Positions 16,408 to 34,715 of a stretch of DNA of 64,000 nt are shown one piece after another. Location of the stretch: NCBI GenBank assembly GCA_963850125.1, contig CAWKKB010000013.1, positions 112,280-176,279 of the forward strand, read 5' to 3'. Numbering within the stretch: position 1 is the stretch's first letter; each line of letters starts with the position of its first letter. Source of the DNA: an uncultured delta proteobacterium. GTDB taxonomy: Bacteria > Desulfobacterota > Binatia > Binatales > Binataceae. The notes below the pieces were generated by a model. The model was not told the DNA's origin. It did no database searches and was given only the letters and a program-made list of their open reading frames with translations. Both the position numbers and the translations under genes were made by a program.

Positions 16408-16426
16408 CGCCTGGCTGCGCGATTCC

Positions 16427-18352: not shown

Positions 18353-19420
18353 TTAACTATCTGATTTTACGGTGGAAACAGGGGTTTCGATCGCAATGCC
18401 GTTGTTAACAGAAGAATTCAGGGCCGCCTCGATTAGCAGCAGTGCAACACGGGCCTGTGTCAGATTGCGCCTTGCTATCGGAGAATCGGTTCCTTCGGTC
18501 ACCGCTCGCTCGAACTCCTCGGCCACACCCCCGAACCACGCCGAATGATAAGAGTCGTCGGCCATGTCCGCGACCGAAAGGTCCTCGGGCTTGCCAGACC
18601 GTTCCGTGAGGAACACTCGATCCCCTTCGATTTCGAGACTCGCTCGCTCTCCATATATGAGGGCCGAGGTTCTCCGCACCGGGGCGCGCCACGACAAGTG
18701 TGCCCGGCCGATCGCACCATTCGCGAACCTGATTCGCACGTCGGCCAGGTCGTCAACGTCCGAACCTGCCGGGGATTCGAGCAGAGCCGAAACCGAGAAC
18801 GGCGTCTGCTCGTTCAGCAGCCAGGACATCAAGTAGAAAACATGCCACCCATGATCGATCAAAATACCGCCGCCCGATGCGGCTGACGAACGCCACTGGC
18901 CACCGCTACCGCCAGCCCCGGCGGGCTCGCTCCGGAGGCGATCGATCGAAATGAAGCGAATCGCGCCGAGACTGCCAGCCTCGATCGCTTTGCGTGCAGC
19001 CGCGTAGGCAGGCGCGTATTTCCAGTTGTGCACGCACATCAACACTCGCCGCTTTTCCGCTGCCAGCCCCGCAAGCTCGTCGAACTCGCCCAGCGAAAGC
19101 GCGAGCGGCTTCTCGACCAGCACGTGCGCGCCCGCCGCCAATGCCGCCCGCGCGGCCTCGTGATGCAACCCCGGAGGACTGGCGACATCCACAAAATCTG
19201 GAGCCTCGCCATCGAGCATCAATTCGAGGTCGTCGTAAACGCGGACACTCTTGATAAGACGGATCGCCTCGTGCCGCCGCTGCGAGACGGGATCGTGAAT
19301 CGCGCCGACAGTGATATTTTCGCGCGTACGCCACCCGGGGAGGTGTGCGCGGGCGGCAACCTCGCCAAATCCCGAAATTGCACCGCGCAATTTTGCTCGA
19401 CTCGCCATCAGCGCCGACAA
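18353..19420 (-). CDS. Gfo/Idh/MocA family NAD(P)-dependent oxidoreductase
   Basis: 355 aa. N-terminal Rossmann fold and the EKPLA motif (VLVEKPLALS) diagnostic of the family. Confidence 0.75.
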   Translation of the reverse strand: MSALMASRAKLRGAISGFGEVAARAHLPGWRTRENITVGAIHDPVSQRRHEAIRLIKSVRVYDDLELMLDGEAPDFVDVASPPGLHHEAARAALAAGAHVLVEKPLALSLGEFDELAGLAAEKRRVLMCVHNWKYAPAYAAARKAIEAGSLGAIRFISIDRLRSEPAGAGGSGGQWRSSAASGGGILIDHGWHVFYLMSWLLNEQTPFSVSALLESPAGSDVDDLADVRIRFANGAIGRAHLSWRAPVRRTSALIYGERASLEIEGDRVFLTERSGKPEDLSVADMADDSYHSAWFGGVAEEFERAVTEGTDSPIARRNLTQARVALLLIEAALNSSVNNGIAIETPVSTVKSDS

Positions 19421-19987: not shown

Positions 19988-20839
19988 CTAAACGTACAGC
20001 TCTGCGATCTTCTTCAGCATCCCTTCGGAATTCTCAAACGTTAGATCTCCCAATCCTGCGACGAATCGTCCCGCGCCGGCTTCCGCGAACTCCTTGAGTC
20101 CATCCTGGACCTTCGCGCGGTCGCCGCGGATTCCGCCCATGATTGTGATATCCAGCTCCGCGAAATTCCTGCCGACCGTCGCGCATTCACGCTTGAGCTC
20201 ATCGACCCGCGTCTTCAATTGCGCCGCAGTTAACTGGATCGGGCACCATCCGTCGGCCCACTTCGCAACCCGCTTGAGTGCATTTTTGTCGAGGCTGCCG
20301 ATCAGCACCGGCGGTCCCGATTTCTGCGCTGGCTTCGGCAACGACTTCACCGGGGGAAACTTGACGTACTTGCCCTCGAAAGACGGCTGGTCCTCGGTCC
20401 ACAGTTTGCGCATCGCTGCGACTATCTCGGCCGTCTCGGTCCATCGATGGGGGAAATCGACGCCGAACAAATCGCTTTCCTCGCGCAGCCATCCGGCGCC
20501 AATTCCGAACAGCACGCGGCCGCCCGAGTATGCATCCAGCGTCGCGAACTGTTTGGCGAGCGTGAGCGGTTCATGCTCAGGCACCAGGCAGATGCCGGTG
20601 GCGAGTTTCAGATTCCTGGTGACGGCGGCCGCCATGCTGAGCGCGATCATCTGATCGGCCATCGTAAAGTATGGCGGCGGGATCGGGCCGCCGGAGGGGA
20701 ACTGCTGCTTGGGATTCGCGGGCATCGCGGGATGCTCCGGCACCCAGATGGATTCGAATCCGAGCGACTCAGCGACTCGCGCAAATTCCGCAGGGTGAGC
20801 ATTCTTGCCAGTGAACGGCGTCAGCAATCCAATTTTCAT
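19988..20839 (-). CDS. LLM-class (luciferase-like) flavin/F420-dependent oxidoreductase
   Basis: 283 aa TIM-barrel LLM family. ESIWVPEH...LATGICLVP...LFGIGAGW blocks. Confidence 0.75.
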   Translation of the reverse strand: MKIGLLTPFTGKNAHPAEFARVAESLGFESIWVPEHPAMPANPKQQFPSGGPIPPPYFTMADQMIALSMAAAVTRNLKLATGICLVPEHEPLTLAKQFATLDAYSGGRVLFGIGAGWLREESDLFGVDFPHRWTETAEIVAAMRKLWTEDQPSFEGKYVKFPPVKSLPKPAQKSGPPVLIGSLDKNALKRVAKWADGWCPIQLTAAQLKTRVDELKRECATVGRNFAELDITIMGGIRGDRAKVQDGLKEFAEAGAGRFVAGLGDLTFENSEGMLKKIAELYV

Positions 20840-20867: not shown

Positions 20868-22289
20868 TCAGTTGCTTCTCACCACGGCGGGCGGCTTCCA
20901 CGAGCCGGTCAGCGCCGCGTCTTTCGGCCAGTACAGCCGCATCACTACGTAAATCGGGCCGTCCGGAGCCGGCAGCCAGTTCGTTTCGTTGTCCGCTCCG
21001 GGCGAGTCTTTCTGCAGGTAAATGGTCATCGAGCCGTCAGCGTTCTTCTTCAGGTCCGGCAGCATCGCCGAGTTAATCAGGTACCGATGGAGTGGATTCT
21101 TGACCAGCAACTGTGTCTTGCCGTCGTACATGGTCACCGACCAGAACGCGTTCACTGGAGGCAGCGCTCCAGCGTGGAACGTCAGGGTGTAACGGTTCGT
21201 GCCGCAATTCGGTTTCTTGCCGCGGCTGTCGGTGGCGAGCAACGGATATAACGCCTCGGCCGCGTCATTGCCGTAGATTCCCGCCATCGCGGCGGCAGCG
21301 CGGCGCGTCCAGTTGCCAGCGAACGAATCGCGATTACCGAAGCCGCTGGTCGACACGCGCCAGCCATTCTCAATCCGGCCGAAAGTTCCGAGTTCCTCCT
21401 GTATCTGGTACATCCCGTTCTTGATGCCCATTTCGATTGCGGACGTTCCTCCCGGCGTATTGGGGGAGAAAGGCTTGCCCGCTTCAATCCCGATCCTGGC
21501 GAATCGCTCGCGCATTGGAATCTCCACTGCTGCGGGGCCAGTCGCCGGACAGAATTGCAGAATGAAGCTCAGGTAGGTGAAAGGACCTGCGTCCGCTTTT
21601 CTTTTGTCGATCTTTGGCCACTTGATCGCGGCAGCCGGCGGCGGTGCGGCTTTATGCTGGAACTTCGAAAGCGGCTCACCGCGATACCCCGCTTGGATCT
21701 TCTTCACGTTTTCGAGATCGCTGGCGTTGAATAGCTGCGTGCGGATTAGTCCGATCGAGAATTCCGTCTCGCTGTGGAACACCTTTGAGATGCCTTCGGG
21801 CTTGTCGCCCGTCCAGCCAGGCCCGGAGATCATGTAGCAGCCGGCGCCGTTACCCGTCGTGCGGCTGCCGATGTAGCCGTAGTTGAAGGTGTACCAATCG
21901 ACTAACTGAATGGAAAAATACCGCGGCTTCTCAATCTCCGGATTGCACAAAACATACGGCTCGGTCCGCAGATCCATCGCGACAAACGAGTACGGCGTGT
22001 CGCTGTTGGGTGTGACGACCGCAGTGTCCGCCGGCGTATAGACGCGGGCCGTGTTGTAGAGCGTGTTAATCGGACCTTTGTATTCGGGCGACGATTTGTC
22101 GATCCAGTACTGGTAGAAGACGGCGTAGTTCATAACGAGAGGCAGGCCGTAAACGAACGCCTCGCCGGCGATAAGGGTTGGCCAGTCGTTGCCGGCCTGT
22201 GCATAAGCTGGATGATCCGATTCCAGCGTCGCCATACTTATGGCAACGACGAGCGCCATCACTGCCGTTTTGAACATCTTGTTCGGCAA
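20868..22289 (-). CDS. Secreted DUF1254/DUF1214-like protein
   Basis: 473 aa. N-terminal signal peptide MFKTAVMALVVAISMATLES. Architecture resembles two-domain DUF1254+DUF1214 proteins. Assignment from memory of family features only. Confidence 0.4.
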   Translation of the reverse strand: MPNKMFKTAVMALVVAISMATLESDHPAYAQAGNDWPTLIAGEAFVYGLPLVMNYAVFYQYWIDKSSPEYKGPINTLYNTARVYTPADTAVVTPNSDTPYSFVAMDLRTEPYVLCNPEIEKPRYFSIQLVDWYTFNYGYIGSRTTGNGAGCYMISGPGWTGDKPEGISKVFHSETEFSIGLIRTQLFNASDLENVKKIQAGYRGEPLSKFQHKAAPPPAAAIKWPKIDKRKADAGPFTYLSFILQFCPATGPAAVEIPMRERFARIGIEAGKPFSPNTPGGTSAIEMGIKNGMYQIQEELGTFGRIENGWRVSTSGFGNRDSFAGNWTRRAAAAMAGIYGNDAAEALYPLLATDSRGKKPNCGTNRYTLTFHAGALPPVNAFWSVTMYDGKTQLLVKNPLHRYLINSAMLPDLKKNADGSMTIYLQKDSPGADNETNWLPAPDGPIYVVMRLYWPKDAALTGSWKPPAVVRSN

Positions 22290-22370: not shown

Positions 22371-22844
22371 CTACCAGCCGAAGAAATCTTTCGCTGCGAC
22401 GAACTTAGCGATCCCGGCTGCTTCACCTGCGAGTCTGTCGACTTCCTGATCGCCGACCATCGTCGACGACGTCAGGTCGACGCCGTACAAATCCGCCAGT
22501 TCCGTGATCATGCCACCCTTGGGCTTGCGGCATTCGCAGTTGTCGTCGTCTGTGTGCGGACAGATTTGCCATCCGGTCAGAATATCGCCGAGCTGATGGT
22601 CAAGCTGCGCGAGAGCTGCTTCGACTTTTTCCACTTTGAGACGGCCGCGCGTGATTCCCGCCTGGTTGGTGACGATAAACATCAGATGGTTGTGCAGCGG
22701 GCGTAGCTTGTCGGCGACGTTGGGCAGCAGTTCGATTACGATGTTACCGTTAGCGTCGAGCGGAATTTCTCGCGACTCGTTCAGCTTGACCAGGGTGCCG
22801 CCTAGATCGAAGAACAGCGCCGCGTTGCCATTCGGATTGGCCAT
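22371..22844 (-). CDS. HAD-IIIA phosphatase, GmhB/HisB-N-like (D,D-heptose-1,7-bisphosphate phosphatase family)
   Basis: About 157 aa from MANPNGNAALFFDLGGTLV. FFDLGG nucleophile motif, IVTNQAGITRG, Zn-binding ICPHTDDDNCECRKPKGGMI and MVGDQEVD match the GmhB signature blocks. The ORF-track start (22931) overlaps the upstream aminotransferase; the internal Met at 22844 is more plausible. Confidence 0.7.
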   Translation of the reverse strand: MANPNGNAALFFDLGGTLVKLNESREIPLDANGNIVIELLPNVADKLRPLHNHLMFIVTNQAGITRGRLKVEKVEAALAQLDHQLGDILTGWQICPHTDDDNCECRKPKGGMITELADLYGVDLTSSTMVGDQEVDRLAGEAAGIAKFVAAKDFFGW

Positions 22845-22860
22845 CGAAAAAAGATCTCGC

Positions 22861-24231
22861 TTATGCGTGATGCCAGTCAACGTGGTCACGAACGTGCGCG
22901 AACACTTCGTCCAGGATTTCGACGCCGGCATCCGCCTGCGCTTCAGTGATTACAAGCGACGGGTTGATACGAATCTTGGGAAAGTAGGCCATCGTGATCA
23001 GACCGCGCTTGAGGCATTCGGCGAAGATCAGCTCGGTGACTTTCTTGCCGAGCAGTTCCTTGGTTTCGAGATCGCGCACGAGCTCGACCCCAATAAGTAG
23101 TCCCTTGCCGCGTACGTCGCCGATGAATTCGTACTTTTCCTTGAGCTGCACCAGGCGTGAGAGCATCATCGCGCCCACTTTGCGCGAGTTCTCGACCAGA
23201 TGCTCTCGCTGAATCGCGCCGATCGTTTCCGAGACCGCAACTGCCGCGAGCGGATTTCCGCCGTAACTCGACGACGACGCGCTCGGCTTACCGAACGGCT
23301 CCGCCTTGCCCAGCTCGTCGCTCAGCAGCACGCCCGAGACCGGGAATCCCGAGCCCATGCCTTTCCCGACGGTGACGATATCCGGACGGACGCCGCTATG
23401 CTCGACGCCCCACCATTTCCCGGTACGTCCGAAGCCGGTGATCATTTCGTCAGCTATCAGCAGCGCGCCGAAATCCTTGGCGACGGATTTGACCGCGGGC
23501 ATCCAGTCGTCGGGCGGAATCACATTGCCAGCCGTGCCCTGCATCGGCTCGGCGACGATCGCAGCGAGCGCCCCGCTGGAACTCATCTTGATTTGCTGAC
23601 GCGCGAAATCGACACAGTAAAGACCGCAGTCGGGATATTTCAACTTGAACGGACATCGGTAGCAGTCAGCATACGGCACCGTGTATTGCCCGCCCTGCAA
23701 AGGTCCGTAGCCTTGCTTCGATTCGTCGCCGATAAGTCCGAGGACGCCGCCGGTCTTGCCGTGGAACCCGCCCCAAAAACTCACCGCTTCATGATGGCCG
23801 GTTGCGGAGCGCGCCAGCCTGAGGGCGGCTTCGACCGCCTCCGCGCCGCCGCTGTACAGATGCGCGCGATTCAATCCGGCGGGCGCGACTTCGGCCAGCG
23901 CCTTGAACGCAGCCGCACGCTCTTTGGTCGCGAAGGTGCCGACTGTCAACCGCGACGCCTGGTTCGACAGCGCTTGCGCCATCCCCGGATGCGCATGACC
24001 CAAACTCGCGACCGCCACGCCCGCAAAAAAATCCACGTAGGTGTTGCCGTCGGCGTCGGTGAGAGTCGCGCCTTCGCCGTGGTCGAAAGCGAGGCCGGCG
24101 AGCAGCGAGATTCGCTGGCGGCCGGGCGCGATATATTTTTGTTCGAGGTCGAAGATCTCTTTCGACTTGGGTCCTGGAACTGGAGTCTTGATCGAGGGAA
24201 GTTTTCCGTTGGTGGTCGTCGTGGTCTTCAA
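22861..24231 (-). CDS. Class III PLP-dependent aminotransferase (acetylornithine/ornithine/GABA-aminotransferase family; HpnO-like)
   Basis: 456 aa. Fold-type I aminotransferase class III blocks: GNTYVDFFAGVAVASLGH, LLIADEMITGFGRTGKWW, TVGKGMGSGFP (Lys in TVGK). Confidence 0.85.
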   Translation of the reverse strand: MKTTTTTNGKLPSIKTPVPGPKSKEIFDLEQKYIAPGRQRISLLAGLAFDHGEGATLTDADGNTYVDFFAGVAVASLGHAHPGMAQALSNQASRLTVGTFATKERAAAFKALAEVAPAGLNRAHLYSGGAEAVEAALRLARSATGHHEAVSFWGGFHGKTGGVLGLIGDESKQGYGPLQGGQYTVPYADCYRCPFKLKYPDCGLYCVDFARQQIKMSSSGALAAIVAEPMQGTAGNVIPPDDWMPAVKSVAKDFGALLIADEMITGFGRTGKWWGVEHSGVRPDIVTVGKGMGSGFPVSGVLLSDELGKAEPFGKPSASSSSYGGNPLAAVAVSETIGAIQREHLVENSRKVGAMMLSRLVQLKEKYEFIGDVRGKGLLIGVELVRDLETKELLGKKVTELIFAECLKRGLITMAYFPKIRINPSLVITEAQADAGVEILDEVFAHVRDHVDWHHA

Positions 24232-24274
24232 TTGATAGCGGTTCCGAATCCTTCTTTGAATTTCCGGCGCGGCG

Positions 24275-25096
24275 CTAACGCGGCCGGCCTAGCAGACTTA
24301 TCGCACGGCGCGCGATCGCGCGAGCGGCCGGGCCGCGCACCCGGCTATAGCTGGGCCAGTCGTTAAAATCGATAATCGCAAAACGGTCTCCACCCAGGAC
24401 TGCGTCTCCGCCCCACGCCTCGAGGCCGAGCGCGGCCGCCGCGGCAGAAGCTGCGTCAGACAGCGCGCGCACGGCGGCCTCGGGAACTTCCTCGTCCTCC
24501 GGATGCACGCTGAAATGCGAATTGCCGCTGACGCCGTAAAATTTCACGACGCGGCCGACGACTTCCTGCTGAACGTACGCGAAGCGAACTCCGCGCTGCG
24601 CGAAATCGGCGAGAATCGACTCGACCTGCGCGCGATCGGCCGCGCGCTGCACGTCTTCGGGCGCGAGCGCATGCAAATCTCCGCGCTTCACGAACACGCC
24701 CGCCGACAAGTCCAGCCCGGCAAGCTTGCGCGCATCGAGCGGCTCGTCCGCGGGAATCAGCGCGCCGACCGGAGTCGGTACTCCGGCGCGCTCGAGGCCG
24801 GGCGCGAGTAAATCGCGATAGCAGTTGCGAATCGAGAGCGCGGAGTTGATCGCAATCGCACCCGCCTGCTCGACGGCGGCCAGCCGCTTGAGTGCGCGCG
24901 GGCCTTGGCACATCGGCAGCACGAGATCGGCGCGCGGGGTTGGTCCCGCCGCAAAGTTGACCGCGTCCACGGTCTGGATATCGAGGCCCTCGCGCTTCAG
25001 CTCCGCCATCGTGGCATCGAGAATCGCGGCGTCGGCTTCGACCTTGCCCGGTGAGAACTCGGGTTCCCGATAAATTCCCAAAGCTTTGTGGCTCAT
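24275..25096 (-). CDS. ATP-grasp-like ligase (RimK-like, divergent)
   Basis: 273 aa. Block AINSALSIRNCYRDLLAPGLERAGVPTP resembles the RimK pre-ATP-grasp/ATP-grasp junction (INS..AIR.C.DKL.T.QLL...GIPVP). C-terminal IIDFNDWPSYS resembles the E/D-x-N..P Mg-binding loop. Low-identity call. Confidence 0.45.
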   Translation of the reverse strand: MSHKALGIYREPEFSPGKVEADAAILDATMAELKREGLDIQTVDAVNFAAGPTPRADLVLPMCQGPRALKRLAAVEQAGAIAINSALSIRNCYRDLLAPGLERAGVPTPVGALIPADEPLDARKLAGLDLSAGVFVKRGDLHALAPEDVQRAADRAQVESILADFAQRGVRFAYVQQEVVGRVVKFYGVSGNSHFSVHPEDEEVPEAAVRALSDAASAAAAALGLEAWGGDAVLGGDRFAIIDFNDWPSYSRVRGPAARAIARRAISLLGRPR

Positions 25097-25818
25097 GGCA
25101 TCTTCCGTATTGCGAGGCGCGCGGCGTCGAGGTCCGACGCTTCATCCACGTCGATCGATCCTTCAATCTCGATCGCATCCAGCCGCATCCCGCGTTCTAT
25201 GAGCATCGCAAGGAAGCGGCGGAGCGCGTCGAGTCCCGCGCGGCGCGCGTCGGCGGCGTACTCGAAAATTCGGGTCGACAGGAAATAAAGTCCTGCCGTC
25301 ATCATAGAAGTGTGACGGTTGCCCAGCCCGATGATCAACCCATTCCCTGTTACATCTGCGAAAAGTGGCTTGAGCTCGCCGCGCCATCGCGACACGGCCA
25401 GCACACCGCTCAGGTTTTTGTCGCCACAATCCTCGATTTTCCGCCGCGACTCATTAACAAACCGCACCAATTCTTTCAGCGGAATTACGGCGTCTACCGT
25501 CGATGCGACAAACCATCCCGGCTCGAGTACATCGGCCAATGCGAGCATCGTTTCCATCGAGTTGGCAGTATCGCGAACGACGAAACGCGCCGACGGCGGC
25601 ATCTCAAGCGCCATCTCGCCCGCAATCCGCGCCGTCTCCGAATTGATCACCGCCACCACCGACGATGCTCCCGCGTCGAGCAGTGCGCGCGCCTGTCGCG
25701 AGAGCATCGCCTCGCCGCCCAAAATGACCAGCGGCTTTGGAGTGTCGTCGCGCGTCGAGATGCGCAGGCGCTCGCCACGGCCGGCGGCAATAATCGCTCC
25801 TTGCAATTTGGTCACCAT
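25093..25818 (-). CDS. Sugar-phosphate/alcohol-phosphate nucleotidyltransferase (NTP_transferase fold; HddC/LicC/MurU-like size)
   Basis: 241 aa. G-x-G-x-R-L signature AIIAAGRGERLR followed by KPLVILGGEAML. Overlaps the neighbouring genes by 4-7 nt, consistent with operon coupling. Confidence 0.7.
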   Translation of the reverse strand: MVTKLQGAIIAAGRGERLRISTRDDTPKPLVILGGEAMLSRQARALLDAGASSVVAVINSETARIAGEMALEMPPSARFVVRDTANSMETMLALADVLEPGWFVASTVDAVIPLKELVRFVNESRRKIEDCGDKNLSGVLAVSRWRGELKPLFADVTGNGLIIGLGNRHTSMMTAGLYFLSTRIFEYAADARRAGLDALRRFLAMLIERGMRLDAIEIEGSIDVDEASDLDAARLAIRKMP

Positions 25819-26540
25819 TGAATCTGCGCAACTTCGTCGATGCTTCGTATCGTCACGTCAGTGGCGGCTGAATCTTTACCGGATCGCGGTTCGGTGCACA
25901 GCCATACTGTCCGCATGCCTAGTTTTCGCGCGGGTGCGCAATCCTTGCCCAGCGAATCCCCAATCATCGCGACCGAACTTGCCGCGCATTGTATTTTCTT
26001 CAAGGCGGCCTCGAAGATGCGTACGTCAGGTTTGAAAATTCCGACGCGCGATGAATCAGCGACCGAGGTGAAGAATCGATCGAGCTTTGCTTCCTCGAGA
26101 ACGCGGTCTAGGTTCCCATAGAAATTAGACACAACGCCCATCTTGAAGCGGTTTTTGAGCGGGCCGACGACGTCGCGACTGTGCGCAAGACCTGCTGACG
26201 TTTCGCGAACGAAGAAATTCGTCACAACCTCGACGAATCGATGGCGTCCCGCGGCGCTGGAATCATCCAAGGTCGCACGAAGCGCGTCGGGACCACTCTT
26301 GCGCAGGTATTCGAACTGATGCCCTACCAGGAACCGCACCAGGTCCATCAATCCGAAGCGCGCGACTATCCTGGTCGCGCCGTAGCCGATTCGCGTCGCG
26401 TGATCGAAGGCGGGGTCGAGCTCGTTCCGGGTGATTTCAACGCCTGCCGCGCTGTAGCTCGCCAGGAATCGGTCGAGCCAGTGCGCAGGCCCGTCGAGGG
26501 TGCCTCCGAAATCGAACAGGAGAGCGGTAATCGGGGCCAT
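25812..26540 (-). CDS. HAD-superfamily hydrolase (phosphatase/phosphomutase-like)
   Basis: 242 aa. Motif I LLFDFGGTL (DxG), plus internal GDSLGKD-type motif III (MIGDSLGKD). Confidence 0.65.
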   Translation of the reverse strand: MAPITALLFDFGGTLDGPAHWLDRFLASYSAAGVEITRNELDPAFDHATRIGYGATRIVARFGLMDLVRFLVGHQFEYLRKSGPDALRATLDDSSAAGRHRFVEVVTNFFVRETSAGLAHSRDVVGPLKNRFKMGVVSNFYGNLDRVLEEAKLDRFFTSVADSSRVGIFKPDVRIFEAALKKIQCAASSVAMIGDSLGKDCAPARKLGMRTVWLCTEPRSGKDSAATDVTIRSIDEVAQIQW

Positions 26541-26583
26541 AAAACGGCCATTGTACCAGCCACAGCGATCATCCTCCAGTTTT

Positions 26584-26599
26584 GTTTCATCGATGAAAC
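26584..26599. promoter_or_regulatory. Perfect 16-bp palindrome GTTTCATCGATGAAAC in an AT-rich divergent promoter; candidate operator
   Basis: Read directly: ...agttttGTTTCATCGATGAAACgaacc... Located in the 215-bp low-GC spacer between the divergent HAD-NTase-ATPgrasp-AT-GmhB operon and the NTase::CDP-OH-P-transferase/B12-rSAM operon. Confidence 0.4.
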
Positions 26600-26755
26600 G
26601 AACCGTTTTTAGAGTAAGAAAAGACTCGCTTCAGAAAAAAGATGAACTCATAATTAATGTGTGAGCTTAGTAGAAGGGCTACTTCCGCCGGCGTTACCGC
26701 TGTGTTACCGTGGCGCGATTGAAGAGGGGGAAAACCGGGTTTTAGTGGAACGTCA

Positions 26756-27952
26756 TTGATCGAAACCGCTCTAATCGCTGCACCTGACCGCGCGGATAAT
26801 GCGGTCTTCGGCCGTCCGCTGTTAGAGCGGCTGATGATTAATTGCGAGCGCGCCGGGATTAAGCGGTTCGTCATCGCGGCGCCGCGCGAGCGTTATTCGG
26901 ATGTCGCGCGCGCGATGGGCCGGTTCAAAAACAGCGACTCGGTCGCGATGGTCGAGTCGTTCGGCGAGATTCTGAATCAGCGGACTGCACAGGAATTGGG
27001 CATCGACCCACTATTGCCGTGCGTGTCCTTTTCGGGAAACCTGGTATTTGCCAAGTCGCAACTGGCGCGAATCCTTGACGCGCACGCCTCCAATCCGAAA
27101 TCGGTACATCGGGCGATCAGCACTGACCATGACCGTGGCGGTGAAATCGCGACTGGTGCGATCGGCGAGATTCTCAAGCGTGGCGGGATTTCGACCCCTG
27201 TTCCTGCATCTGCTGCGAGCCTCCTGCCCTTTGCCCTGAACGGTCGTCCCGAAGATCGGGAGGAAGCCGAATTGCGGCTGGCGAAATCGATTCGCGAGGA
27301 GTCGGCGCACAAGGACGCGCCGATGGCGCGATGGGTCGACCGGCGCATTTCGTGGCGCATCAGCTATTGGCTCGCGTCGCATACGCGCGCAACGCCGAAC
27401 ATGATCACGGTCGCGAACACGATGTTCGGGCTGGCGACTGCGTGGATGTTTTCGGTGCCGAACTACTGGATGCGGCTGTTCGCGGCGATTTTCTTTTTGA
27501 TTTCGATCACGATCGATGGCGTCGACGGCGAGTTGGCGCGGCTCAAGATGGTTGAGAGCGATTTCGGCGGCGCGCTGGACGTAATCACCGACAATGTCGT
27601 CCACGCCGCCGTGTTCATCGGCTTGCTGGTCGGATGTTACAGGGTCGAGCATAGCCGCGCTTACCTTTACCTGATTCCAATCCTGCTGGGCGGATTTGCG
27701 ATGTGCGCTTATGCGACGTGGCGCGCATTTAAGATAAAAGGCGCGCGCGCGGCGGAATGGTTGGACAAGGTCGATCGATGGAGCGGGCGCGATTTCGCCT
27801 ATTTGCTCGTGGTATTGGCTCTAATCAATCGGCTAGAGTACTTCGCTTGGGGAACAGCGTTCGGTACTTACCTGTTCGCCCTGGGGCTGATATGGATTGC
27901 CGGCCGGACCGAATCGTCAATGAAGCCTGAAGAGTCTGCAGGAATAAGTTGA
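26756..27952 (+). CDS. Bifunctional-architecture protein: N-terminal nucleotidyltransferase-like (GT-A/NTP_transferase-like, signature degenerate) domain fused to C-terminal CDP-alcohol phosphotransferase membrane domain (IPCT/DIPPS-like organisation)
   Basis: 398 aa. Perfect CDP-alcohol phosphatidyltransferase motif D-G-x2-A-R-x8-G-x3-D-x3-D in DGELARLKMVESDFGGALDVITD, followed by 3-4 TM helices. N-terminal about 200 aa has ALIAAPDRADNAVFGRPLL instead of the canonical G-x-G-T-R-L. Confidence 0.7.
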   Translation: MIETALIAAPDRADNAVFGRPLLERLMINCERAGIKRFVIAAPRERYSDVARAMGRFKNSDSVAMVESFGEILNQRTAQELGIDPLLPCVSFSGNLVFAKSQLARILDAHASNPKSVHRAISTDHDRGGEIATGAIGEILKRGGISTPVPASAASLLPFALNGRPEDREEAELRLAKSIREESAHKDAPMARWVDRRISWRISYWLASHTRATPNMITVANTMFGLATAWMFSVPNYWMRLFAAIFFLISITIDGVDGELARLKMVESDFGGALDVITDNVVHAAVFIGLLVGCYRVEHSRAYLYLIPILLGGFAMCAYATWRAFKIKGARAAEWLDKVDRWSGRDFAYLLVVLALINRLEYFAWGTAFGTYLFALGLIWIAGRTESSMKPEESAGIS

Positions 27953-27971
27953 GCCTGCAGGCGGAGGAAGT

Positions 27972-29303
27972 ATGAACGGCAAGAAGCCACGAATTCTCCT
28001 GGTGCAACCCACGACCGTCCATCTGGACGGCACACCGCACAAAACGCGATGGCGGCTGATCATGGGCCTCATGATTCCGCTGATGGCCGGACTGACGCCC
28101 GACGACTACGACGTGACGCTGTGCGACGAACGCCTCGAGGACATCAACTTCGATGGCGGATGGGACCTGGTCGGCATGACGACAACGATCGGCGCGTCGC
28201 TGCGCGCGTACCAGCTCGGCGACGAGTTCCGCAAACGCGGAATCCCGGTGGTGTTCGGCGGCTTCCATGCAACCTTGCAGACCGAAGAAGCGCTCCATCA
28301 TTGCGACGCGGTCGTGAAGGGAGAGGCCGACCTGGTGTGGCCCGAGCTGCTGCAGGACTGGCGTGACGGCAAGCTCAAGACGATTTACAAAGCCGACAAA
28401 GTGCACGATCTGAAAAACCTGCCGCGACCGCGGCATGAACTGCTCAAGCTGAATCGCTACCTGTTCAAAGCGGTGCCCGTGCAGGCGAGCCGCGGATGCC
28501 CGTATCGATGTTCGTTCTGCGAGATTCCGGTGTTCTACGACGGCGCATATCGCACGCGGCCCATCGAGGACATCGTCGAAGAGATCAAGCAGGTCATGAA
28601 GGTGACCGGCTTCAGGCGCTTTCAGTTCATCGACGATCAGATTACCGGCAAGCACAAGTTCGCGCGCGAGCTGTTCAAGGCGCTCGAGCCGCTCAATATC
28701 CGTTTCTCCTGCCTGTGGACCATCAATTCGAATCACGACGACGAGTTGCTGGACCTCGCGGCGAAGGCGGGAATTTTCCACGTCAACATCGGGGTGGAAT
28801 CGATCAGCCAGGACAGCCTGCTGTCGATGAACAAGATTCAGAATCACGCCGGGCAGTACAAGAAGCTGCTCAAGAAGCTCGAAAAATACGGAATCTATTA
28901 TTCGCTCAACTTCCTGTTCGGGCTGGAAGAGGATCATCCGGGAATTTTCGACGACACGCTGAAGTTCCTGCACGAGGTCAAGGCGCCCGAGGCGTTCTTC
29001 AACACCGTTACGCCGCGCGTCGGCACTCCGATGCGCACGCAGCTCGAGAACGAAGGCCGCGTGATAATCCCCGACGCCGATTTGTACACCAACAACTTCC
29101 GCTGCATGTTCGTGCCGAAAAACATGTCGCCGCAGGAAGTCGAAGAAGGCGTGTGGCGATGCACCAAGGAGTTCTACTCGCTCAAGTCGATGTTCAAGCG
29201 TCTGCTGATGCCGCCGGGAAAGTTCACCTGGCAGGGCCTGACCGAGAACATGCTCTTCTACTGGGGCGCGAAGCGGCAGATCGATCCGGTTGATTATTAT
29301 TAG
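27972..29303 (+). CDS. B12-binding-domain radical SAM enzyme (class B rSAM; HpnJ/HpnP/HpnR-like or other)
   Basis: 443 aa. N-terminal cobalamin-binding Rossmann-like region (RILLVQP...VVFGGFHATL). CxxxCxxC cluster ASRGCPYRCSFCEI. C-terminal extension resembling the DUF4070-type tail of class B rSAMs. Confidence 0.8.
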   Translation: MNGKKPRILLVQPTTVHLDGTPHKTRWRLIMGLMIPLMAGLTPDDYDVTLCDERLEDINFDGGWDLVGMTTTIGASLRAYQLGDEFRKRGIPVVFGGFHATLQTEEALHHCDAVVKGEADLVWPELLQDWRDGKLKTIYKADKVHDLKNLPRPRHELLKLNRYLFKAVPVQASRGCPYRCSFCEIPVFYDGAYRTRPIEDIVEEIKQVMKVTGFRRFQFIDDQITGKHKFARELFKALEPLNIRFSCLWTINSNHDDELLDLAAKAGIFHVNIGVESISQDSLLSMNKIQNHAGQYKKLLKKLEKYGIYYSLNFLFGLEEDHPGIFDDTLKFLHEVKAPEAFFNTVTPRVGTPMRTQLENEGRVIIPDADLYTNNFRCMFVPKNMSPQEVEEGVWRCTKEFYSLKSMFKRLLMPPGKFTWQGLTENMLFYWGAKRQIDPVDYY

Positions 29304-29858: not shown

Positions 29859-30704
29859 CTACGGATTGAGCACGACGTTGTCGATTAGGCGCGTCTTGCC
29901 GACGCGGGCGGCTATTGCGATCAGGATTGGGCGATCGAGCGACGGATGACGCGCTAGCGTCTCGGCGTCCACTGCTTCTACGTATTCGATCTCGACGCCT
30001 TTCATTCGTTTGAGCACGCGAGTCGCCGCGAACACTACTTCCTCGGCACAGCATGGGTGGGTGCGATGCTTCTCGCGGGCGGCCCGCAGGGCGAGGCTCA
30101 GCGCGAGGGCCTCTTCGCGCTCAGTCGGCGAGAGATAAGCGTTGCGCGAGCTCATCGCGAGGCCGTCTTTTTCGCGCACAATTGGCACCGGCAGAATCTC
30201 GACTTCGAAGTTCAGGTCGCGGACCATTTTCTGGATCGCGCGGAGCTGCTGGAAATCTTTCTCGCCGAAGACCGCAAGATGCGGTTTGACGATGTTGAAC
30301 AGTTTGGCGACCACCGTCGTTACGCCGCGGAAGTGCCCGGGGCGATGCGCGCCGCAGAGGCCCATGGTGATGTCGCCGGCGTCGACCCAGCTCTGCGCGT
30401 CGGGCGAGTACATCGCAGCGGGCTCGGGCGCGAAGACGACATCCACCGGTACCGTCTGGAGCATCGTGCAGTCGCGCTCGAAGTTGCGCGGGTAGCGCGC
30501 GAAGTCCTCGCCGGGACCGAACTGCGTCGGATTGACGAAGATCGACGCGACCAGAACCGACGACCGGCGGCGGCCCTCGCGCATCAGGGTGAGATGGCCG
30601 TCGTGCAGAAATCCCATCGTCGGCACGAGCCCGATTCGTTCACTACATTTGACCGCATCACGGGAGAAACGGGTCATCTCGTCGGGCGAGGTGATAGTGA
30701 TCAT
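29859..30704 (-). CDS. panC: Pantoate--beta-alanine ligase (pantothenate synthetase)
   Basis: 282 aa from MITITSPDEM. Motifs GLVPTMGFLHDGHLTLM (HIGH-like), FVNPTQFGPGEDF, AVFGEKDFQQL. The ORF-track version carries a spurious 113-aa Arg-rich N-extension. The real ATG overlaps the panB stop (ATGA). Confidence 0.9.
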   Translation of the reverse strand: MITITSPDEMTRFSRDAVKCSERIGLVPTMGFLHDGHLTLMREGRRRSSVLVASIFVNPTQFGPGEDFARYPRNFERDCTMLQTVPVDVVFAPEPAAMYSPDAQSWVDAGDITMGLCGAHRPGHFRGVTTVVAKLFNIVKPHLAVFGEKDFQQLRAIQKMVRDLNFEVEILPVPIVREKDGLAMSSRNAYLSPTEREEALALSLALRAAREKHRTHPCCAEEVVFAATRVLKRMKGVEIEYVEAVDAETLARHPSLDRPILIAIAARVGKTRLIDNVVLNP

Positions 30705-31549
30705 CGCGAGGCCCTCTTCGATTCGGCGTAGCAATGTTCCGCTGCCGGGAACGCGCGCTCCTTCACTTCGCGCACGTACGCGCTGGTTGCCGCCGACGCC
30801 TCGTTCCACAGATGCGCGAACGGCTTGGCGAAGCGCGGTGCGCACGATTCGAAAAGGCCGAGCATGTCGTGCATCACGAGCACCTGGCCATCGCAATCGG
30901 GACCGGCGCCGATGCCAATAGTCGGGATTGAGACGCTGGCAGTTATCTCGCGCGCCAGCGACGGCGGCACGCCCTCGACCACGATCGCGAATGCGCCCGC
31001 GGCCTCGAGTGCGGCGGCATCTTCGAGCAGGCGCTCGCGGCATCCGGCGGCGCGGCCGGATTTGCGGCCCTGCACCCGATGTCCGCCCATCCGATGTATC
31101 GACTGCGGCGTCAGCCCGACGTGGCCCATCACAGGAATATCGACGGCCGCAATCCTCGCGACCGCATCGGCAATCGCGAGGCCGCCTTCGAGCTTCACTG
31201 CCTCCGCGCCGCCTTCCTTGACCAGACGGCCGGCGTTGCGCAGCGCGTCTTCAGGGCTCACCTGATACGAGAGAAACGGCATGTCGGCGACGATCAGTGC
31301 GCGGCGCCGTGCGCGTGCGACCGCACGAGTGTGGTAGATGACCTCTTCGATGGTGACTGCCAGCGTCGTGTCCTCGCCGCGCACCGCCATTCCGAGGCTA
31401 TCGCCGATGAGGAGCACGTCGACACCGCAGTTGTCGAAAATTCTCGCGAATGGGAAATCGTACGCGGTGAGCATCGTGATCGGCTGGCGCGCAGCCTTCA
31501 TGCGCGCGAGATCGGGCACGCGAACTTTGTCTTGCGTCATATTCTTCAA
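30701..31549 (-). CDS. panB: 3-methyl-2-oxobutanoate hydroxymethyltransferase (ketopantoate hydroxymethyltransferase)
   Basis: 282 aa. ITMLTAYDFPFARIFDNCGVDVLLIGDSLGM signature. Confidence 0.9.
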   Translation of the reverse strand: MKNMTQDKVRVPDLARMKAARQPITMLTAYDFPFARIFDNCGVDVLLIGDSLGMAVRGEDTTLAVTIEEVIYHTRAVARARRRALIVADMPFLSYQVSPEDALRNAGRLVKEGGAEAVKLEGGLAIADAVARIAAVDIPVMGHVGLTPQSIHRMGGHRVQGRKSGRAAGCRERLLEDAAALEAAGAFAIVVEGVPPSLAREITASVSIPTIGIGAGPDCDGQVLVMHDMLGLFESCAPRFAKPFAHLWNEASAATSAYVREVKERAFPAAEHCYAESKRASR

Positions 31550-31830
31550 GCGCTCCTTGCTCCACTAAAAAAATCGGGGCTGCCGCGTACCGGCAACCCC
31601 GCATTAGAGCATCCTCGAATCAACGAGCGCTCGAATCACTCGGAGTCCCGGTCCTTATCGGATCCAGGCGCGAGCAGACAGCCGAAACCAAAATGTCCTA
31701 TCAACACCGTCTCGCCGGGAAAAATTCCTCGACGGACCAGTTCAATTATATAGAGAAAGCGGACGGGCGCGTAAAGAGAAATCGCTGGGGACAATTGTTC
31801 GTATCGTCCTGGGCGCAACGATCGTAATCC

Positions 31831-31868
31831 CCTCTCCCAGAATGGGAGAGGATGAAGGTGAGGGTCCT
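31831..31868 (+). repeat. REP-like palindromic repeat, copy B (CCTCTCCC-AGAAT-GGGAGAGG-ATGAAGGTGAGGGTCCT)
   Basis: Read directly; in the panB upstream intergenic region. Confidence 0.7.
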
Positions 31869-32030
31869 CATAAAGCGCGCATTTTAGCGCGCGATCTACG
31901 GTTCTGCCTCTTCTCCGAAACGCGCCGGGGCTATGCCAAGCTCTTCCGTCCGAAAAGAGATAAACACAGGCGGGAAGATTCAGGGCAAGGAACAGAATCT
32001 TGATTCGCGCGAAAGACGCGCGCTGAAAAA

Positions 32031-32069
32031 GGACCCTCACCTTCATCCTCTCCCTTTCAGGGCGAGGGG
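32031..32069 (-). repeat. REP-like palindromic repeat, copy C (reverse orientation; AGGACCCTCACCTTCATCCTCTCCC-TTTCA-GGGCGAGGGG)
   Basis: Reverse complement matches the family core GGGAGAGGATGAAGGTGAGGGTCCT. Inverted relative to copy B, with about 160 bp between them. Confidence 0.7.
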
Positions 32070-32144
32070 AAGAAGGACAAGGAGAGGTTATAGGATTTAG
32101 GACAGGCGCGCGGCGCTGTCGGACTACTAGCGAGTCCGGATTAA

Positions 32145-33074
32145 TCAGTTGGTGGCTTGCTGGATGTCGGAGGGGACCGGCATCGTCACCTGCAGGCGTT
32201 TGCCATCGCGCACGACGCTCAGGTATACGATTTCGCCGGGCTGAAGGTCACGCATGCGATCCTGGAAGTCGAGAAAATTGGTCACGCGCGAGCCGTCGAC
32301 GCCGATGATCAAGTCGTAGCTCTCGCCGACCTGCATGTAGTCCAGCGCCGGAATCACAATCACCGATAAACCGCCAGAGAAAACCGCCCCCACCATCGCG
32401 GCCGCGGCGAGCGCATCGTGGACGGTATGACTATATGGGCGCAGACCGACGGCTGCAGCGGGGCTGCCCTTCTCGACTTGCGTGATCAGCAAGCCGTCCG
32501 CCTCTTCGCCGGATTTGAGCGAACGTTTCGCCTCGCGCAATTGCATTCCGAAAGGAGTGGATAGCTCCCCCTCACTGTCGAACTCCTGCAAGGCCTTGAG
32601 CTGCTCAGGCGGCATCCCGCTCTGCTCCTCCTGGTAACGCGCGATCTCACCACCCTCGGCGGCGGGCTCCGAATCGGGCGAACTCCCGGCGGGCTGTTGC
32701 TGCGATGCGTCGGCGCTGGTGGGCGAAATCTCCGCGGTGCCAGGCTGCGTGGCGGCTATATCAGGCGGCGTCGGAACCAGATTCGATGGACTGGAAGCGG
32801 CCGCGGGAGAACCAGCTGCGGCTAGTGCCGTGCGCGGCGGTGAAGGCGAGACGGCTTCCACAATCGGAGCTCCAGCGCCGGATGCCGCGGTCGAGCTTCC
32901 AGACGCGGCAGAGGCGGCGGCCGATTTCCAGGTTTCAGAGGCGGTAGTATCGGCACTGGACTGTGCGGATGCGATCGCGCTGGCGAACAGAACCAGCAGC
33001 ATTGCGGCGAGCGATGCGCCGAAAGCGTGATGCTCGCACGCTTTGCTAGTTAGTAGCGCTCCAGCGTTTTTCAT
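32145..33074 (-). CDS. Secreted PDZ-domain protein with Ala/Ser/Pro-rich low-complexity linker
   Basis: 309 aa. N-terminal hydrophobic signal (MLLVLFASAIASAQ). Long low-complexity A/S/P region. C-terminal PDZ-like block (GLLITQVEKGSPAAAVGLRP...GEIVYLSVVRDGKRLQVTM). No protease domain is present. Confidence 0.5.
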   Translation of the reverse strand: MKNAGALLTSKACEHHAFGASLAAMLLVLFASAIASAQSSADTTASETWKSAAASAASGSSTAASGAGAPIVEAVSPSPPRTALAAAGSPAAASSPSNLVPTPPDIAATQPGTAEISPTSADASQQQPAGSSPDSEPAAEGGEIARYQEEQSGMPPEQLKALQEFDSEGELSTPFGMQLREAKRSLKSGEEADGLLITQVEKGSPAAAVGLRPYSHTVHDALAAAAMVGAVFSGGLSVIVIPALDYMQVGESYDLIIGVDGSRVTNFLDFQDRMRDLQPGEIVYLSVVRDGKRLQVTMPVPSDIQQATN

Positions 33075-33930: not shown

Positions 33931-33944
33931 ATGTCCCTCAAAAC

Positions 33945-34715
33945 CTAGCGTCGGTTGCGCTCAAATATCAGCCGGAGACCTTTTAATGTCAAAAACTCGT
34001 CGACCTCTTCAATCGTTTCGCTTTCGGGCGCGATAAGGTCGGCGAGACCGCCGGTTGCGATGACCCGCGCCTTTTCGCCGCGCTCCTTCAGGATGCGGCC
34101 GACGAGACCGTCCACCAACGCGGTGTATCCAAAGATAAGCCCCGACTGAATCGAGCCCACAGTGGTGCGGCCGACAGCCTCGCGCGGGCGCACCAGCTCG
34201 ACGCGATAGAGCTTCGCGGCGTGCTCGATCAACGCGTTCATCGAAACGCCAAGGCCTGGCGCGATTGCCCCGCCGGCGTACTCGCCCTTGCCGGTCACGT
34301 AGTCGAACGTGGTGGCGGTGCCGAAATCGACGACGATGGTTGCGCATGAGTAGCGTTCGTAAGCGGCGACCGCGTTGACGATTCGATCGGCGCCCACTTC
34401 CTTGGGATTTTCGTAAAGGATCGGCATCCCGGTTTTAATTCCCGGACCGACCATCAGAGGGGTGCAATGGAAGTAGCGCTCGGCGAGTTGCTCCATCACC
34501 TGGTTGAGCGGAGGAACCACGCATGCAATCGCAACGCCTTCGGGCCTGACGCCGCCCTCGAGGCCGTCGCCCGCGAGAAGCGTATTGAGCAACGCGCCAT
34601 GCTCGTCGGTCGTGCGATCGGGAACGGTCGAGATGCGCCAGTGATTGCGCAGCCGCTCGCCTTCGTAGATTCCAATCACGGTATGGCTGTTGCCGACATC
34701 AACCGTTATCAGCAT
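33945..34715 (-). CDS. coaX: Type III pantothenate kinase
   Basis: 256 aa. N-terminal MLITVDVGNSHTVIGIY, DRIVNAVAA and the GTATTFDYV acetate/sugar-kinase fold motifs typical of CoaX. Confidence 0.85.
   Translation of the reverse strand: MLITVDVGNSHTVIGIYEGERLRNHWRISTVPDRTTDEHGALLNTLLAGDGLEGGVRPEGVAIACVVPPLNQVMEQLAERYFHCTPLMVGPGIKTGMPILYENPKEVGADRIVNAVAAYERYSCATIVVDFGTATTFDYVTGKGEYAGGAIAPGLGVSMNALIEHAAKLYRVELVRPREAVGRTTVGSIQSGLIFGYTALVDGLVGRILKERGEKARVIATGGLADLIAPESETIEEVDEFLTLKGLRLIFERNRR

Follow-up and report, generated by a model that had tools for sequence, protein, structure and literature searches.

We analysed a 64,000-nucleotide stretch of contig CAWKKB010000013.1 from an uncultured bacterium of the Binatia, hereafter called the window, in which a cassette of seven genes at 22371-29303 encodes a CDP-alcohol phosphotransferase together with enzymes for nucleotidyl transfer, transamination and further modification of what we propose to be an inositol-derived lipid head group. 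The window has a GC content of ~60% overall, its named homologues (83-92% identity) belong to Candidatus Binatus (Binatota) metagenome-assembled genomes, and the locus recurs, exactly or nearly so, on metagenome contigs of up to 161 kb. All seven open reading frames (ORFs) listed in a preliminary description of the window were found at their coordinates, with a coding-type GC content at third codon positions of 0.67-0.82, and the tight packing described for the minus strand (overlaps of 4-7 nt, gaps below 45 nt) was confirmed, with overlaps of 7 and 4 nt and gaps of 43 and 16 nt. The features of the cassette, and one co-directional gene downstream of it, are the following:

18353-19420, minus strand: GFO/IDH/MocA NAD(P) oxidoreductase (GFO), co-directional with the cassette and 3 kb downstream of it
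22371-22931 (ORF; probable gene 22371-22844), minus strand: HAD-IIIA family protein, 16-nt gap to the aminotransferase gene
22861-24231, minus strand: class-III aminotransferase (AT3; GABA-AT-like, pyridoxal-phosphate type), 43-nt gap after the ATP-grasp gene
24275-25096, minus strand: 273-aa ATP-grasp enzyme, overlapping the nucleotidyltransferase gene by 4 nt
25093-25818, minus strand: stand-alone nucleotidyltransferase (NTase; NTP_transf_3), overlapping the HAD-IA-like gene by 7 nt
25812-26540, minus strand: HAD-IA-like hydrolase, a member of the core module whose gene opens the minus-strand operon
26541-26755, no strand: divergent promoter region, 215 bp, 46% GC, with a perfect palindrome
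26756-27952, plus strand: long-type CDP-alcohol phosphotransferase (PF01066)
27972-29303, plus strand: B12-binding radical SAM enzyme, 19-nt gap after the transferase gene

The probable start of the HAD-IIIA gene is an internal ATG at 22844, which yields a protein of 157 aa, as in metagenome gene calls. On the plus strand, the 19-nt gap indicates that the transferase and radical SAM genes are co-transcribed. The spacer between the two gene groups is AT-rich relative to the window, as had been noted, and its perfect palindrome is the 16-nt GTTTCATCGATGAAAC at 26584-26599. This palindrome occurred only in the window and in the near-identical contigs L001 and L003 and was missing from L002 and every other Binatia locus, which rules it out as a conserved operator. 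An Rfam search of the spacer returned no cobalamin or other riboswitch at E values up to 1, and a scan of 18-30 kb for sigma-70 promoters and terminators showed no enrichment over shuffled sequences and no sigma-70 consensus match in the spacer. On L001, the HAD-IA-like, NTase and ATP-grasp genes are called as a single 756-aa protein (6298-8568), and L001 and L002 contain further genes that are split; this protein probably reflects assembly frameshifts rather than a natural fusion.

Using a genome scan with a diverse alignment, we obtained 80 related loci, which we annotated in BLAST searches, taking as queries the proteins of the window and others recognised in the loci themselves. Their gene arrangements are, by group:

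Binatia, 19 loci: radical SAM and transferase genes divergent from HAD-IA/NTase/ATP-grasp/AT3/HAD-IIIA; each gene in 16-19 of the 19, in the same order
Desulfobacterota, Gemmatimonadota, Ignavibacteria, Elusimicrobiota, Verrucomicrobiota and Bdellovibrionota, 28 loci: HAD-IA/NTase/ATP-grasp/AT3/GFO(/transferase/LPG_synthase_TM)
Bacteroidota, 33 loci: NTase/ATP-grasp/transferase/(LPG_synthase_TM)/HAD, never AT3 or GFO

Co-conservation of the genes in the Binatia lies far beyond chance. The notion of a closed seven-gene unit, however, did not survive the comparison: the unit that recurs across phyla is a four-gene core of HAD-IA-like, NTase, ATP-grasp and CDP-alcohol phosphotransferase genes, present in at least six phyla, plus the aminotransferase gene and the GFO gene outside the reported span, whereas the HAD-IIIA and B12-radical SAM genes are additions confined to the Binatia. 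Within the core, 72 of the 80 loci have the HAD-IA-like gene next to those for NTase and ATP-grasp, and the NTase is conserved in all groups. Natural fusions join NTase to ATP-grasp in six representative proteins, HAD to NTase and ATP-grasp in one (P0316), ATP-grasp to a long-type CDP-alcohol transferase, and ATP-grasp to the aminotransferase in the Desulfobacterales locus L031; these fusions tie five gene products to one process. The ATP-grasp protein is an overlooked, obligatory member of the module, and its family comprised 1133 representative clusters at E values up to 1e-3.

The domain assignments of the preliminary description were all borne out by Pfam and NCBIfam. Since none of the seven proteins reached the cut-off of an NCBIfam equivalog, no characterised pathway could be assigned to the cassette, as had been stated; the broader statement that the gene combination matches no pathway that can be named needs amending, as Bacteroides vulgatus and Prevotella carry a nameable relative, the "putative alternative inositol lipid cluster", for which formation of CDP-inositol and its transfer to diacylglycerol were proposed (Heaver et al. 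2022; PMC9246714). That cluster comprises an NTP transferase (BVU_RS13095), a CDP-alcohol phosphatidyltransferase (BVU_RS13105) and a HAD protein (BVU_RS13115), the Bacteroidota version of the module correlates with inositol sphingolipid production, and a transferase::HAD fusion was reported for P. veroralis; the ATP-grasp gene between RS13095 and RS13105 is not mentioned (PMC9246714). Among our loci, L074 from Phocaeicola vulgatus ATCC 8482, which carries, in this order, NTase, ATP-grasp, transferase, LPG_synthase_TM, HAD and MFS genes, one opposite-strand gene and the gene for myo-inositol-phosphate synthase (MIPS), matches this cluster by gene order and locus-tag spacing. Homologues of the four core genes of the window stand in a single operon in L074, with identities of 36% for the ATP-grasp protein, 28% for the NTase and 29% for the HAD protein. 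Likewise shared are the joint encoding of NTase, CDP-alcohol transferase and HAD (25093-27952 in the window), the D-x-G-G-T motif of the HAD protein and the proposed CDP-head-group, Kennedy-like logic. The Bacteroidota cluster differs in having no aminotransferase or GFO, a short transferase, no HAD-IIIA protein and no B12-radical SAM enzyme of the Binatia type, and MIPS and LPG_synthase_TM genes are usually adjacent to it, whereas no MIPS gene lies near the cassette in the window.

The transferase consists of a degenerate NTase-like domain (about residues 1-125), a linker and a membrane domain, in which PF01066 matches residues 213-363 (56.3 bits, cut-off 22) and the D-G-x2-D-G-x2-A-R...G-x3-D-x3-D motif is intact, with DGVDGELAR...GGALDVITD invariant in 20 homologues. 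Its best NCBIfam matches, all below cut-off, were IPCT/DIPPS, archaetidylinositol-phosphate synthase and PIP synthase, all of which handle inositol phosphate; IPCT/DIPPS (NF041135) scored 79.6 bits against a cut-off of 580 and aligned over the transferase half only (residues 184-344). A transferase profile matched the PDB entries for AF2299 (E 3e-27), IPCT-DIPPS (1e-17) and PIPS (2e-11). Upon aligning the N-terminal domain to the NTase of the cluster with hhalign (probability 90.8%, E 1.2e-6), we found that the alignment begins after the GxGxR loop, where the domain reads AAPDRADNAVFGRP; the loop is missing, in agreement with the degeneracy noted earlier, and the signature of a competent N-terminal cytidylyltransferase as in IPCT/DIPPS (GxGxR(L) loop and PKPL lysine) was not found in this domain. 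Foldseek on an AlphaFold model returned 4mnd and 4q7c, followed by IspD and KdsB for the N-terminal domain, which at a pLDDT of 54 is supportive only. These matches support the designation of the protein as a pseudo-NTase::CDP-alcohol phosphotransferase. The long type occurs in Binatia, Desulfobacterota and the Elusimicrobiota locus L061, and a short type without the pseudo-NTase domain in Bacteroidota, Ignavibacteria and Gemmatimonadota. The likeness to IPCT/DIPPS (A. fulgidus AF0263, 4MND) and to AF2299 (4O6M) extends from an N-terminal NTase fold joined to a six-helix transferase to a conserved juxtamembrane helix, the best sequence and fold matches and an implied separate dephosphorylation step. 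It ends at the N-terminal domain, which here has no GxGxR loop, a separate NTase gene being predicted to supply the activity, and at the setting, which is mesophilic bacteria and a lipid-related genomic context. Downstream of the radical SAM gene, two Binatia loci have an additional CDP-alcohol phosphotransferase gene (at ~1.9 kb in L010 and ~0.7 kb in L015), a paralogue whose product shares 39-40% identity with that of the window.

For the stand-alone NTase, Pfam matched PF12804 and PF00483, the AAGRGERL...PKPL signature (GxGxRL/PKPL) is intact, and IPCT/DIPPS NF041135 matches weakly at the N-terminal end; the enzyme is presumably a (C)TP:head-group-phosphate nucleotidylyltransferase. The 273-aa protein encoded next to it was matched by no Pfam or NCBIfam model, and a PDB search with it as a single sequence reached E ~0.06 at best, a profile of close homologues doing no better. 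A diverse profile of 58 members, by contrast to these searches, matched ITPK4 (E 1.5e-7), the ATP-grasp protein 7drm (2.8e-7), RimK (3e-6) and ITPK1 (4e-5) in the PDB, the ITPK4 match being limited to the C-terminal third and the RimK match spanning a longer stretch. Throughout the family K137, K185, D231 and N245 are invariant and D243 is near-invariant, and the Mg-site motif D-x-N-D-W-P-S-[FY] resembles the D-x-N-x-x-P-[GS]-[YF] of ITPK. A Pfam scan of the 58 members gave sub-threshold ATP-grasp matches only, and for ITPK1/Ins134_P3_kin (PF05770) the window protein scored 12.7 bits against a gathering threshold of 23, with sub-threshold matches in 11 of the 58. The fold, together with the conserved Lys and the Mg-binding Asp and Asn, settles by sequence comparison the earlier guess that this protein is of the ATP-grasp type; the ligase activity proposed with that guess is no better placed than a kinase activity, and the protein is a candidate inositol(-phosphate) or inosamine kinase or, alternatively, a ligase.

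The preliminary description had counted two phosphatases in the cassette, which is not secure. Pfam assigned the HAD-IA-like protein to Hydrolase and HAD_2, and the HAD-IIIA protein exceeded the cut-offs of TIGR01656 (88 versus 84 bits) and TIGR01662 (74 versus 45), passing for HAD-IIIA and histidinol-phosphatase domain models only. Motif I, however, reads DFGGT in the HAD-IA-like protein (D-[FY]-G-G-T in 74 of 74 orthologues) and DLGGT in the HAD-IIIA protein (D-L-[GA]-G-T in 17 of 17), and both proteins are without the Asp+2 general acid/base of the DxDx[TV] motif in canonical HAD phosphatases and mutases. We take the D-x-G-G-T motif to be closer to the D-x-Y-G-T of L-2-haloacid dehalogenases than to the phosphatase motif. 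For the HAD-IIIA protein, which had been described as GmhB-like, the GmhB models fell below cut-off (NF006506, 82 versus 178 bits; TIGR00213, 60 versus 149.6), and DxDxT is absent. Its gene was found in 16 of the 19 Binatia loci and in no other group.

The aminotransferase appears to define an aminated variant of the module. It matches PF00202 with 313 bits and reaches no NCBIfam equivalog cut-off, its orthologues are 47-83% identical across phyla, and its gene directly follows the ATP-grasp gene in Binatia, Desulfobacterota, Gemmatimonadota, Ignavibacteria, Elusimicrobiota and Verrucomicrobiota, while AT3 and GFO occur in none of the 33 Bacteroidota loci. The proposed HpnO-like identity is disfavoured because AT3 travels with the NTase/ATP-grasp module beside MIPS in loci for which no hopanoid gene turned up within 10 kb; no HpnO model was among the NCBIfam matches listed for the protein. 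GFO follows AT3 in 21 of the 28 aminated loci outside the Binatia and is probably the dehydrogenase partner of the aminotransferase. The window holds a single GFO homologue, which shows a full-length identity of 36% to the GFO directly after AT3 in Desulfoferrobacter suflitae, and its best NCBIfam match is the inositol 2-dehydrogenase IolG (78 versus 355 bits, below cut-off). PDB searches with the aminotransferase and with GFO gave generic family matches only. Dehydrogenase/aminotransferase pairs acting on a cyclitol or sugar phosphate are established for inosamine in aminocyclitol antibiotics and for kanosamine (NtdC/NtdA/NtdB). These scyllo-inosamine and Ntd routes likewise combine a GFO/IDH/MocA dehydrogenase, a pyridoxal-phosphate aminotransferase and a HAD protein, but their aminotransferases are mostly of the DegT/DnrJ type rather than class III, and their products are antibiotics or free amino sugars instead of CDP-activated lipid head groups.

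The radical SAM enzyme (PF04055, PF02310, DUF4070) was found in this type in Binatia loci only. Among Binatia loci (L004-L020) it is 88-93% identical, against 45-83% for the other cassette genes, suggesting a purifying selection that is unusually strong for an accessory enzyme. Its proposed membership of the HpnJ and HpnR families was contradicted by the models (HpnJ TIGR03471, 79.3 versus 577.6 bits; HpnR TIGR04367, 49 versus 650), and an identity with HpnJ is ruled out by the 24-25% identity to the true HpnJ of Desulfobacterota loci (745 bits in L031, 739 in L025). Other equivalogs were likewise rejected, all being below cut-off: BchE (102 versus 481 bits), PhpK (88 versus 600) and the ladderane radical SAM model TIGR04072 (73 versus 360). 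No HpnP model was among its best 25 NCBIfam matches. A different B12-binding radical SAM protein, 26-27% identical to HpnJ, is encoded just after MIPS (gene at ~15-17 kb) in L035, L041, L050 and L055, which are non-aminated Bacteroidota clusters of Prevotellaceae and Muribaculaceae. B12-radical SAM enzymes thus seem to have been recruited beside the module in three lineages. Desulfobacterota clusters also carry, at their distal end, a second radical SAM gene of a non-B12 type (L025, 16667-17635; L031, 19943-20770; 64% identity), placed after a TolC-like gene and an HpnN-like gene (L031) or MlaC (L025), with MoaA/PqqE-like matches and a weak match to the tetraether synthase Tes.

Outside the Binatia, the surroundings of the module point to inositol and to lipids. 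MIPS adjoins it in 23 of the 33 Bacteroidota loci, including that of P. vulgatus ATCC 8482; among aminated loci, a eukaryote-like MIPS adjoins L032, L042, L073 and L052 and a bacterial-type MIPS (PF01658, E 7.5e-36) adjoins L026, L030 and L053, and in the Binatia locus L019 MIPS lies ~5 kb from the radical SAM gene. LPG_synthase_TM, a flippase-type domain of MprF, adjoins the module in 33 loci; MlaD/E/F precede the ATP-grasp gene in L032, L042 and L073, MlaC follows in L025, TolC-like genes follow in Desulfobacterota, and in L023, L027, L030 and L053 the module is followed by HpnN-like RND genes. Weak but independent pointers from the proteins themselves agree with inositol, namely the top three NCBIfam matches of the transferase, the IolG match of GFO and the ITPK match of the ATP-grasp protein.

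The hopanoid link raised in the preliminary description proved stronger than the sequence alone had shown, as hpn clusters of Desulfobacterota contain an orthologous module. The hopanoid locus beside the cassette in the window is real, with HpnK, HpnG-like, HpnA, HpnE, HpnD, HpnC, SHC and HpnH genes at 3485-17431, and the Binatia module adjoins hopanoid genes (hpnH-shc) in the window, L002, L005 and L014. In L031, HpnK-like, HpnI-like and HpnJ (745 versus 577.6 bits) genes lie on one strand, and on the other HpnA (509 bits), HpnH (505 bits), HAD, NTase, ATP-grasp::AT3, GFO and transferase genes, the HpnH and HAD ORFs being 3 nt apart; LPG_TM, the TolC-like gene, the HpnN-like gene and the second radical SAM gene follow the transferase gene. 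A true HpnJ gene (739 bits in L025, the cultured D. suflitae DRH4) directly precedes the HAD gene in L023, L024, L025 and L027. Hopanoid-linked copies hence occur in two phyla, that of the Binatia and the Desulfobacterota, although most Binatia loci have no hpn gene within 10 kb.

We propose, as a reading whose chances we regard as evenly balanced, that the locus encodes a Kennedy-type, IPCT/DIPPS-like pathway in which an inositol-derived aminocyclitol head group is linked to a membrane lipid through a phosphodiester. Of the preliminary interpretation, which is supported in part, the IPCT/DIPPS-like logic is among the portions that hold. The pathway would start from myo-inositol phosphate made by a MIPS encoded elsewhere in the genome. 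GFO would oxidise one ring carbon and AT3 would transaminate the product, giving an amino-deoxy-inositol (inosamine), the ATP-grasp protein would supply a phosphate as an ITPK-like kinase, and the NTase would form CDP-(amino)inositol, perhaps with a second phosphate still attached. The membrane transferase, its own NTase-like domain being catalytically dead, would then move the phospho-head group to a lipid alcohol. The HAD-IA-like protein may remove or move a phosphate, either before the pathway (inositol 3-phosphate to inositol) or after transfer (by analogy with the steps from phosphatidylinositol phosphate (PIP) to phosphatidylinositol (PI) or from di-myo-inositol phosphate phosphate (DIPP) to di-myo-inositol phosphate (DIP)), and the HAD-IIIA and B12-radical SAM enzymes may perform tailoring steps specific to the Binatia. 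Two orders of the steps both fit the gene content: one could run from inositol 3-phosphate via inositol, inosose, inosamine, inosamine phosphate and CDP-inosamine to the lipid, and the other from inositol 3-phosphate via an inositol bisphosphate and CDP-inositol phosphate to a lipid-linked phosphoinositol phosphate and then a lipid-linked phosphoinositol, with an early amination. The latter would spare a futile dephosphorylation, parallels PIP and DIPP intermediates, and fits ITPK-type enzymes and the transferase::HAD fusion of P. veroralis. The acceptor could be a membrane lipid such as a glycerolipid, a bacteriohopanepolyol (BHP) or a soluble polyol phosphate. The PIP-synthase route (mycobacterial PgsA1; Bacteroides BT_1523 and BT_1525) shares the transferase superfamily (PIPS, E 2e-11) and the sequence of transfer followed by removal of a head-group phosphate; it differs in that its donor is CDP-diacylglycerol, which needs no head-group NTase, and in having no ATP-grasp protein, aminotransferase or GFO.

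Several observations weigh against this proposal. By tblastn, neither type of MIPS was found in the 64-kb window, nor was any in 18 of the 19 Binatia loci, and LPG_synthase_TM was likewise absent from the window and from 18 of the 19; the inositol and lipid links of the Binatia therefore rest on orthology. GFO lies within 10 kb in only 4 of the 19 Binatia loci, and at 36% identity the window GFO is a tentative orthologue of the cluster GFO. The ATP-grasp protein resembles RimK/graspetide ligases about as closely as it does ITPK kinases, both HAD proteins may not be phosphatases, and the closest matches of the long-type transferase are AF2299 and DIPPS, the latter with a soluble acceptor. An amino-inositol membrane lipid was not found in the searchable literature, and searches on inosamine lipids, on CDP-inositol with ATP-grasp and on hopanoids with CDP-alcohol found nothing relevant. 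The parent pathway is itself only predicted, its functions being stated as unconfirmed by the authors (PMC9246714).

The acceptor might instead be a hopanoid, the long-type transferase placing phospho-aminoinositol on a hydroxyl of a BHP (for example C-35 of bacteriohopanetetrol (BHT)) to yield a phosphodiester-linked composite BHP, a phospho analogue of BHT cyclitol ether; we consider this unlikely, and likewise the reading in which, in addition, the long pseudo-NTase transferase would be specific for hopanoids and the Binatia B12-radical SAM enzyme would further tailor the head group. The module of the window runs in the same direction as TetR-hpnH-FPPS-ADH-shc-dxr-hpnCDE-hpnA and lies immediately upstream of it, an adjacency seen also in L002, L005 and L014, and its embedding in the hpn cluster of L031 is independent of this; the HpnJ genes before HAD in four Desulfobacterota loci and the HpnN-like RND genes in L023, L027, L030 and L053 also argue for a hopanoid, as does the long pseudo-NTase transferase, which is found in both lineages with hopanoid-linked loci, and also in Elusimicrobiota L061. 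Aminated modules in Ignavibacteria, Gemmatimonadota and Bdellovibrionota, however, stand beside MIPS and Mla genes with no hopanoid gene detected within 10 kb, most Binatia loci show no hpn gene within that distance, and clustering of envelope-lipid genes can mean shared regulation or export rather than a shared substrate. No phosphorylated BHP is known to us, nor did the literature searched yield one. The HpnH/G/I/K/J pathway to BHT cyclitol ether shares the neighbourhood, an aminocyclitol-bearing lipid product and the involvement of a B12-radical SAM enzyme, but starts from GlcNAc and proceeds via a glycosyltransferase, a deacetylase and ring contraction to an ether, where NDP activation and a phosphotransferase would here lead to a phosphodiester.

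A soluble phosphodiester solute akin to di-myo-inositol phosphate or diglycerol phosphate, formed from CDP-(amino)inositol and a polyol phosphate and then dephosphorylated by a HAD protein, seems distinctly improbable to us. It would account for the best matches of the transferase (IPCT/DIPPS and AF2299) and the conserved DIPPS-like two-domain architecture, for the two phosphatase-like genes of Binatia loci, one of which the DIPP-to-DIP step needs beside the transferase, and for the absence of a flippase-type gene there; yet LPG_synthase_TM, Mla, TolC-like and RND lipid-transport genes border the orthologous modules, and the DIPPS model score is far below cut-off (79.6 versus 580). DIP-type solutes are known from (hyper)thermophiles, and the carriers of the module are mesophilic soil and sediment lineages, which also counts against a solute. 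The correlation of the Bacteroidota version with inositol sphingolipid production does so as well (PMC9246714). We give similarly slim chances to a Binatia substrate other than inositol, that is, another aminated polyol or sugar phosphate whose amine an ATP-grasp ligase acylates and whose product the B12-radical SAM enzyme methylates or rearranges, as the preliminary description had it. The lack of MIPS in the window and in 18 of the 19 Binatia loci, the longer RimK match of the ATP-grasp protein and the Binatia extras (HAD-IIIA, B12-radical SAM and frequently an LLM oxidoreductase), which suggest diverged chemistry, would fit such a substrate. The ATP-grasp protein is, however, equally conserved in Bacteroidota clusters without an aminotransferase, hence with no amine to acylate, fusions tie it to the NTase, and adjacency to MIPS recurs with orthologous genes in five other lineages.

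Bacterial inositol lipids are considered rare. Our comparison places the CDP-inositol ("Kennedy-like") route that has been proposed for Bacteroides and Prevotella within a much larger family, which has an aminated branch in six or more phyla; the core belongs to a predicted, experimentally unverified type of pathway, and our overall confidence in the mechanism, judged from sequence comparisons, is moderate. The aminated branch or its product, the ATP-grasp protein as a member of the module, the embedding in hpn clusters and the Binatia-specific additions were not found in the searchable literature. If the proposal of an aminocyclitol lipid is correct, the locus would specify an amino-phospholipid or amino-phospho-hopanoid that has so far gone unrecognised, perhaps a new lipid class, with a bearing on membrane biology, on the "unidentified aminophospholipids" of chemotaxonomy and on the interpretation of lipid biomarkers; were the acceptor a hopanoid, Binatia and Desulfobacterota would make previously unknown phosphodiester-linked composite hopanoids. 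Among the carriers are the Binatia, abundant uncultured bacteria of soils, and Desulfobacterota that reduce sulfate or live syntrophically, and with D. suflitae DRH4 as a cultured carrier the prediction is directly testable.

Downstream of the cassette, the same strand carries in order DUF1254/DUF1214, LLM, GFO, TetR, HpnH, FPP synthase, Zn-dependent alcohol dehydrogenase (Zn-ADH), SHC and Dxr genes, followed by HpnC, HpnD, HpnE, HpnA and a CruF-like gene and then by the HpnG-like and HpnK genes. Two of these neighbours exceeded the cut-offs of their models:

16427-17431, minus strand: HpnH (adenosyl-hopene transferase), TIGR03470, 375 bits against a cut-off of 225, start of the hopanoid array
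19988-20839, minus strand: F420-dependent LLM-class oxidoreductase, TIGR03619, 244 bits against a cut-off of 167

HpnK was likewise above its cut-off (250 versus 232.6 bits) and the HpnG-like phosphorylase below (108 versus 187); the window spans 3485-5246 and 6078-6983 cover the HpnK/HpnG-like/CruF-like stretch, and no HpnI or HpnJ homologue was found within the 64 kb. The LLM oxidoreductase gene, which lies downstream of HAD-IIIA within 10 kb of the cassette in 7 of the 19 Binatia loci, is possibly, on this weak basis, a Binatia-specific accessory gene. Between it and HAD-IIIA, the DUF1254/DUF1214 gene (20868-22289) is inserted in the window and L001 only, among all loci. Both this gene and a 104-aa ORF after the radical SAM gene are conserved only in near-identical contigs, which rules them out as members of the cassette. 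The CruF-like gene, a carotenoid hydratase homologue, lies between HpnA and an SDR gene, and the Zn-ADH gene (14372-15439) lies between SHC and FPP synthase, and beside SHC also in L005 and L014; weak matches of its product include the scyllo-inosose 3-dehydrogenase IolM (138 versus 450 bits). At the left end, 2906-3454 encodes a homologue of ArsN1/phosphinothricin-type N-acetyltransferases (145 versus 210 bits), and to the right of the cassette a pantothenate/CoA group at 29859-34715 includes PanC and a type III pantothenate kinase, with PanB seen on L001.

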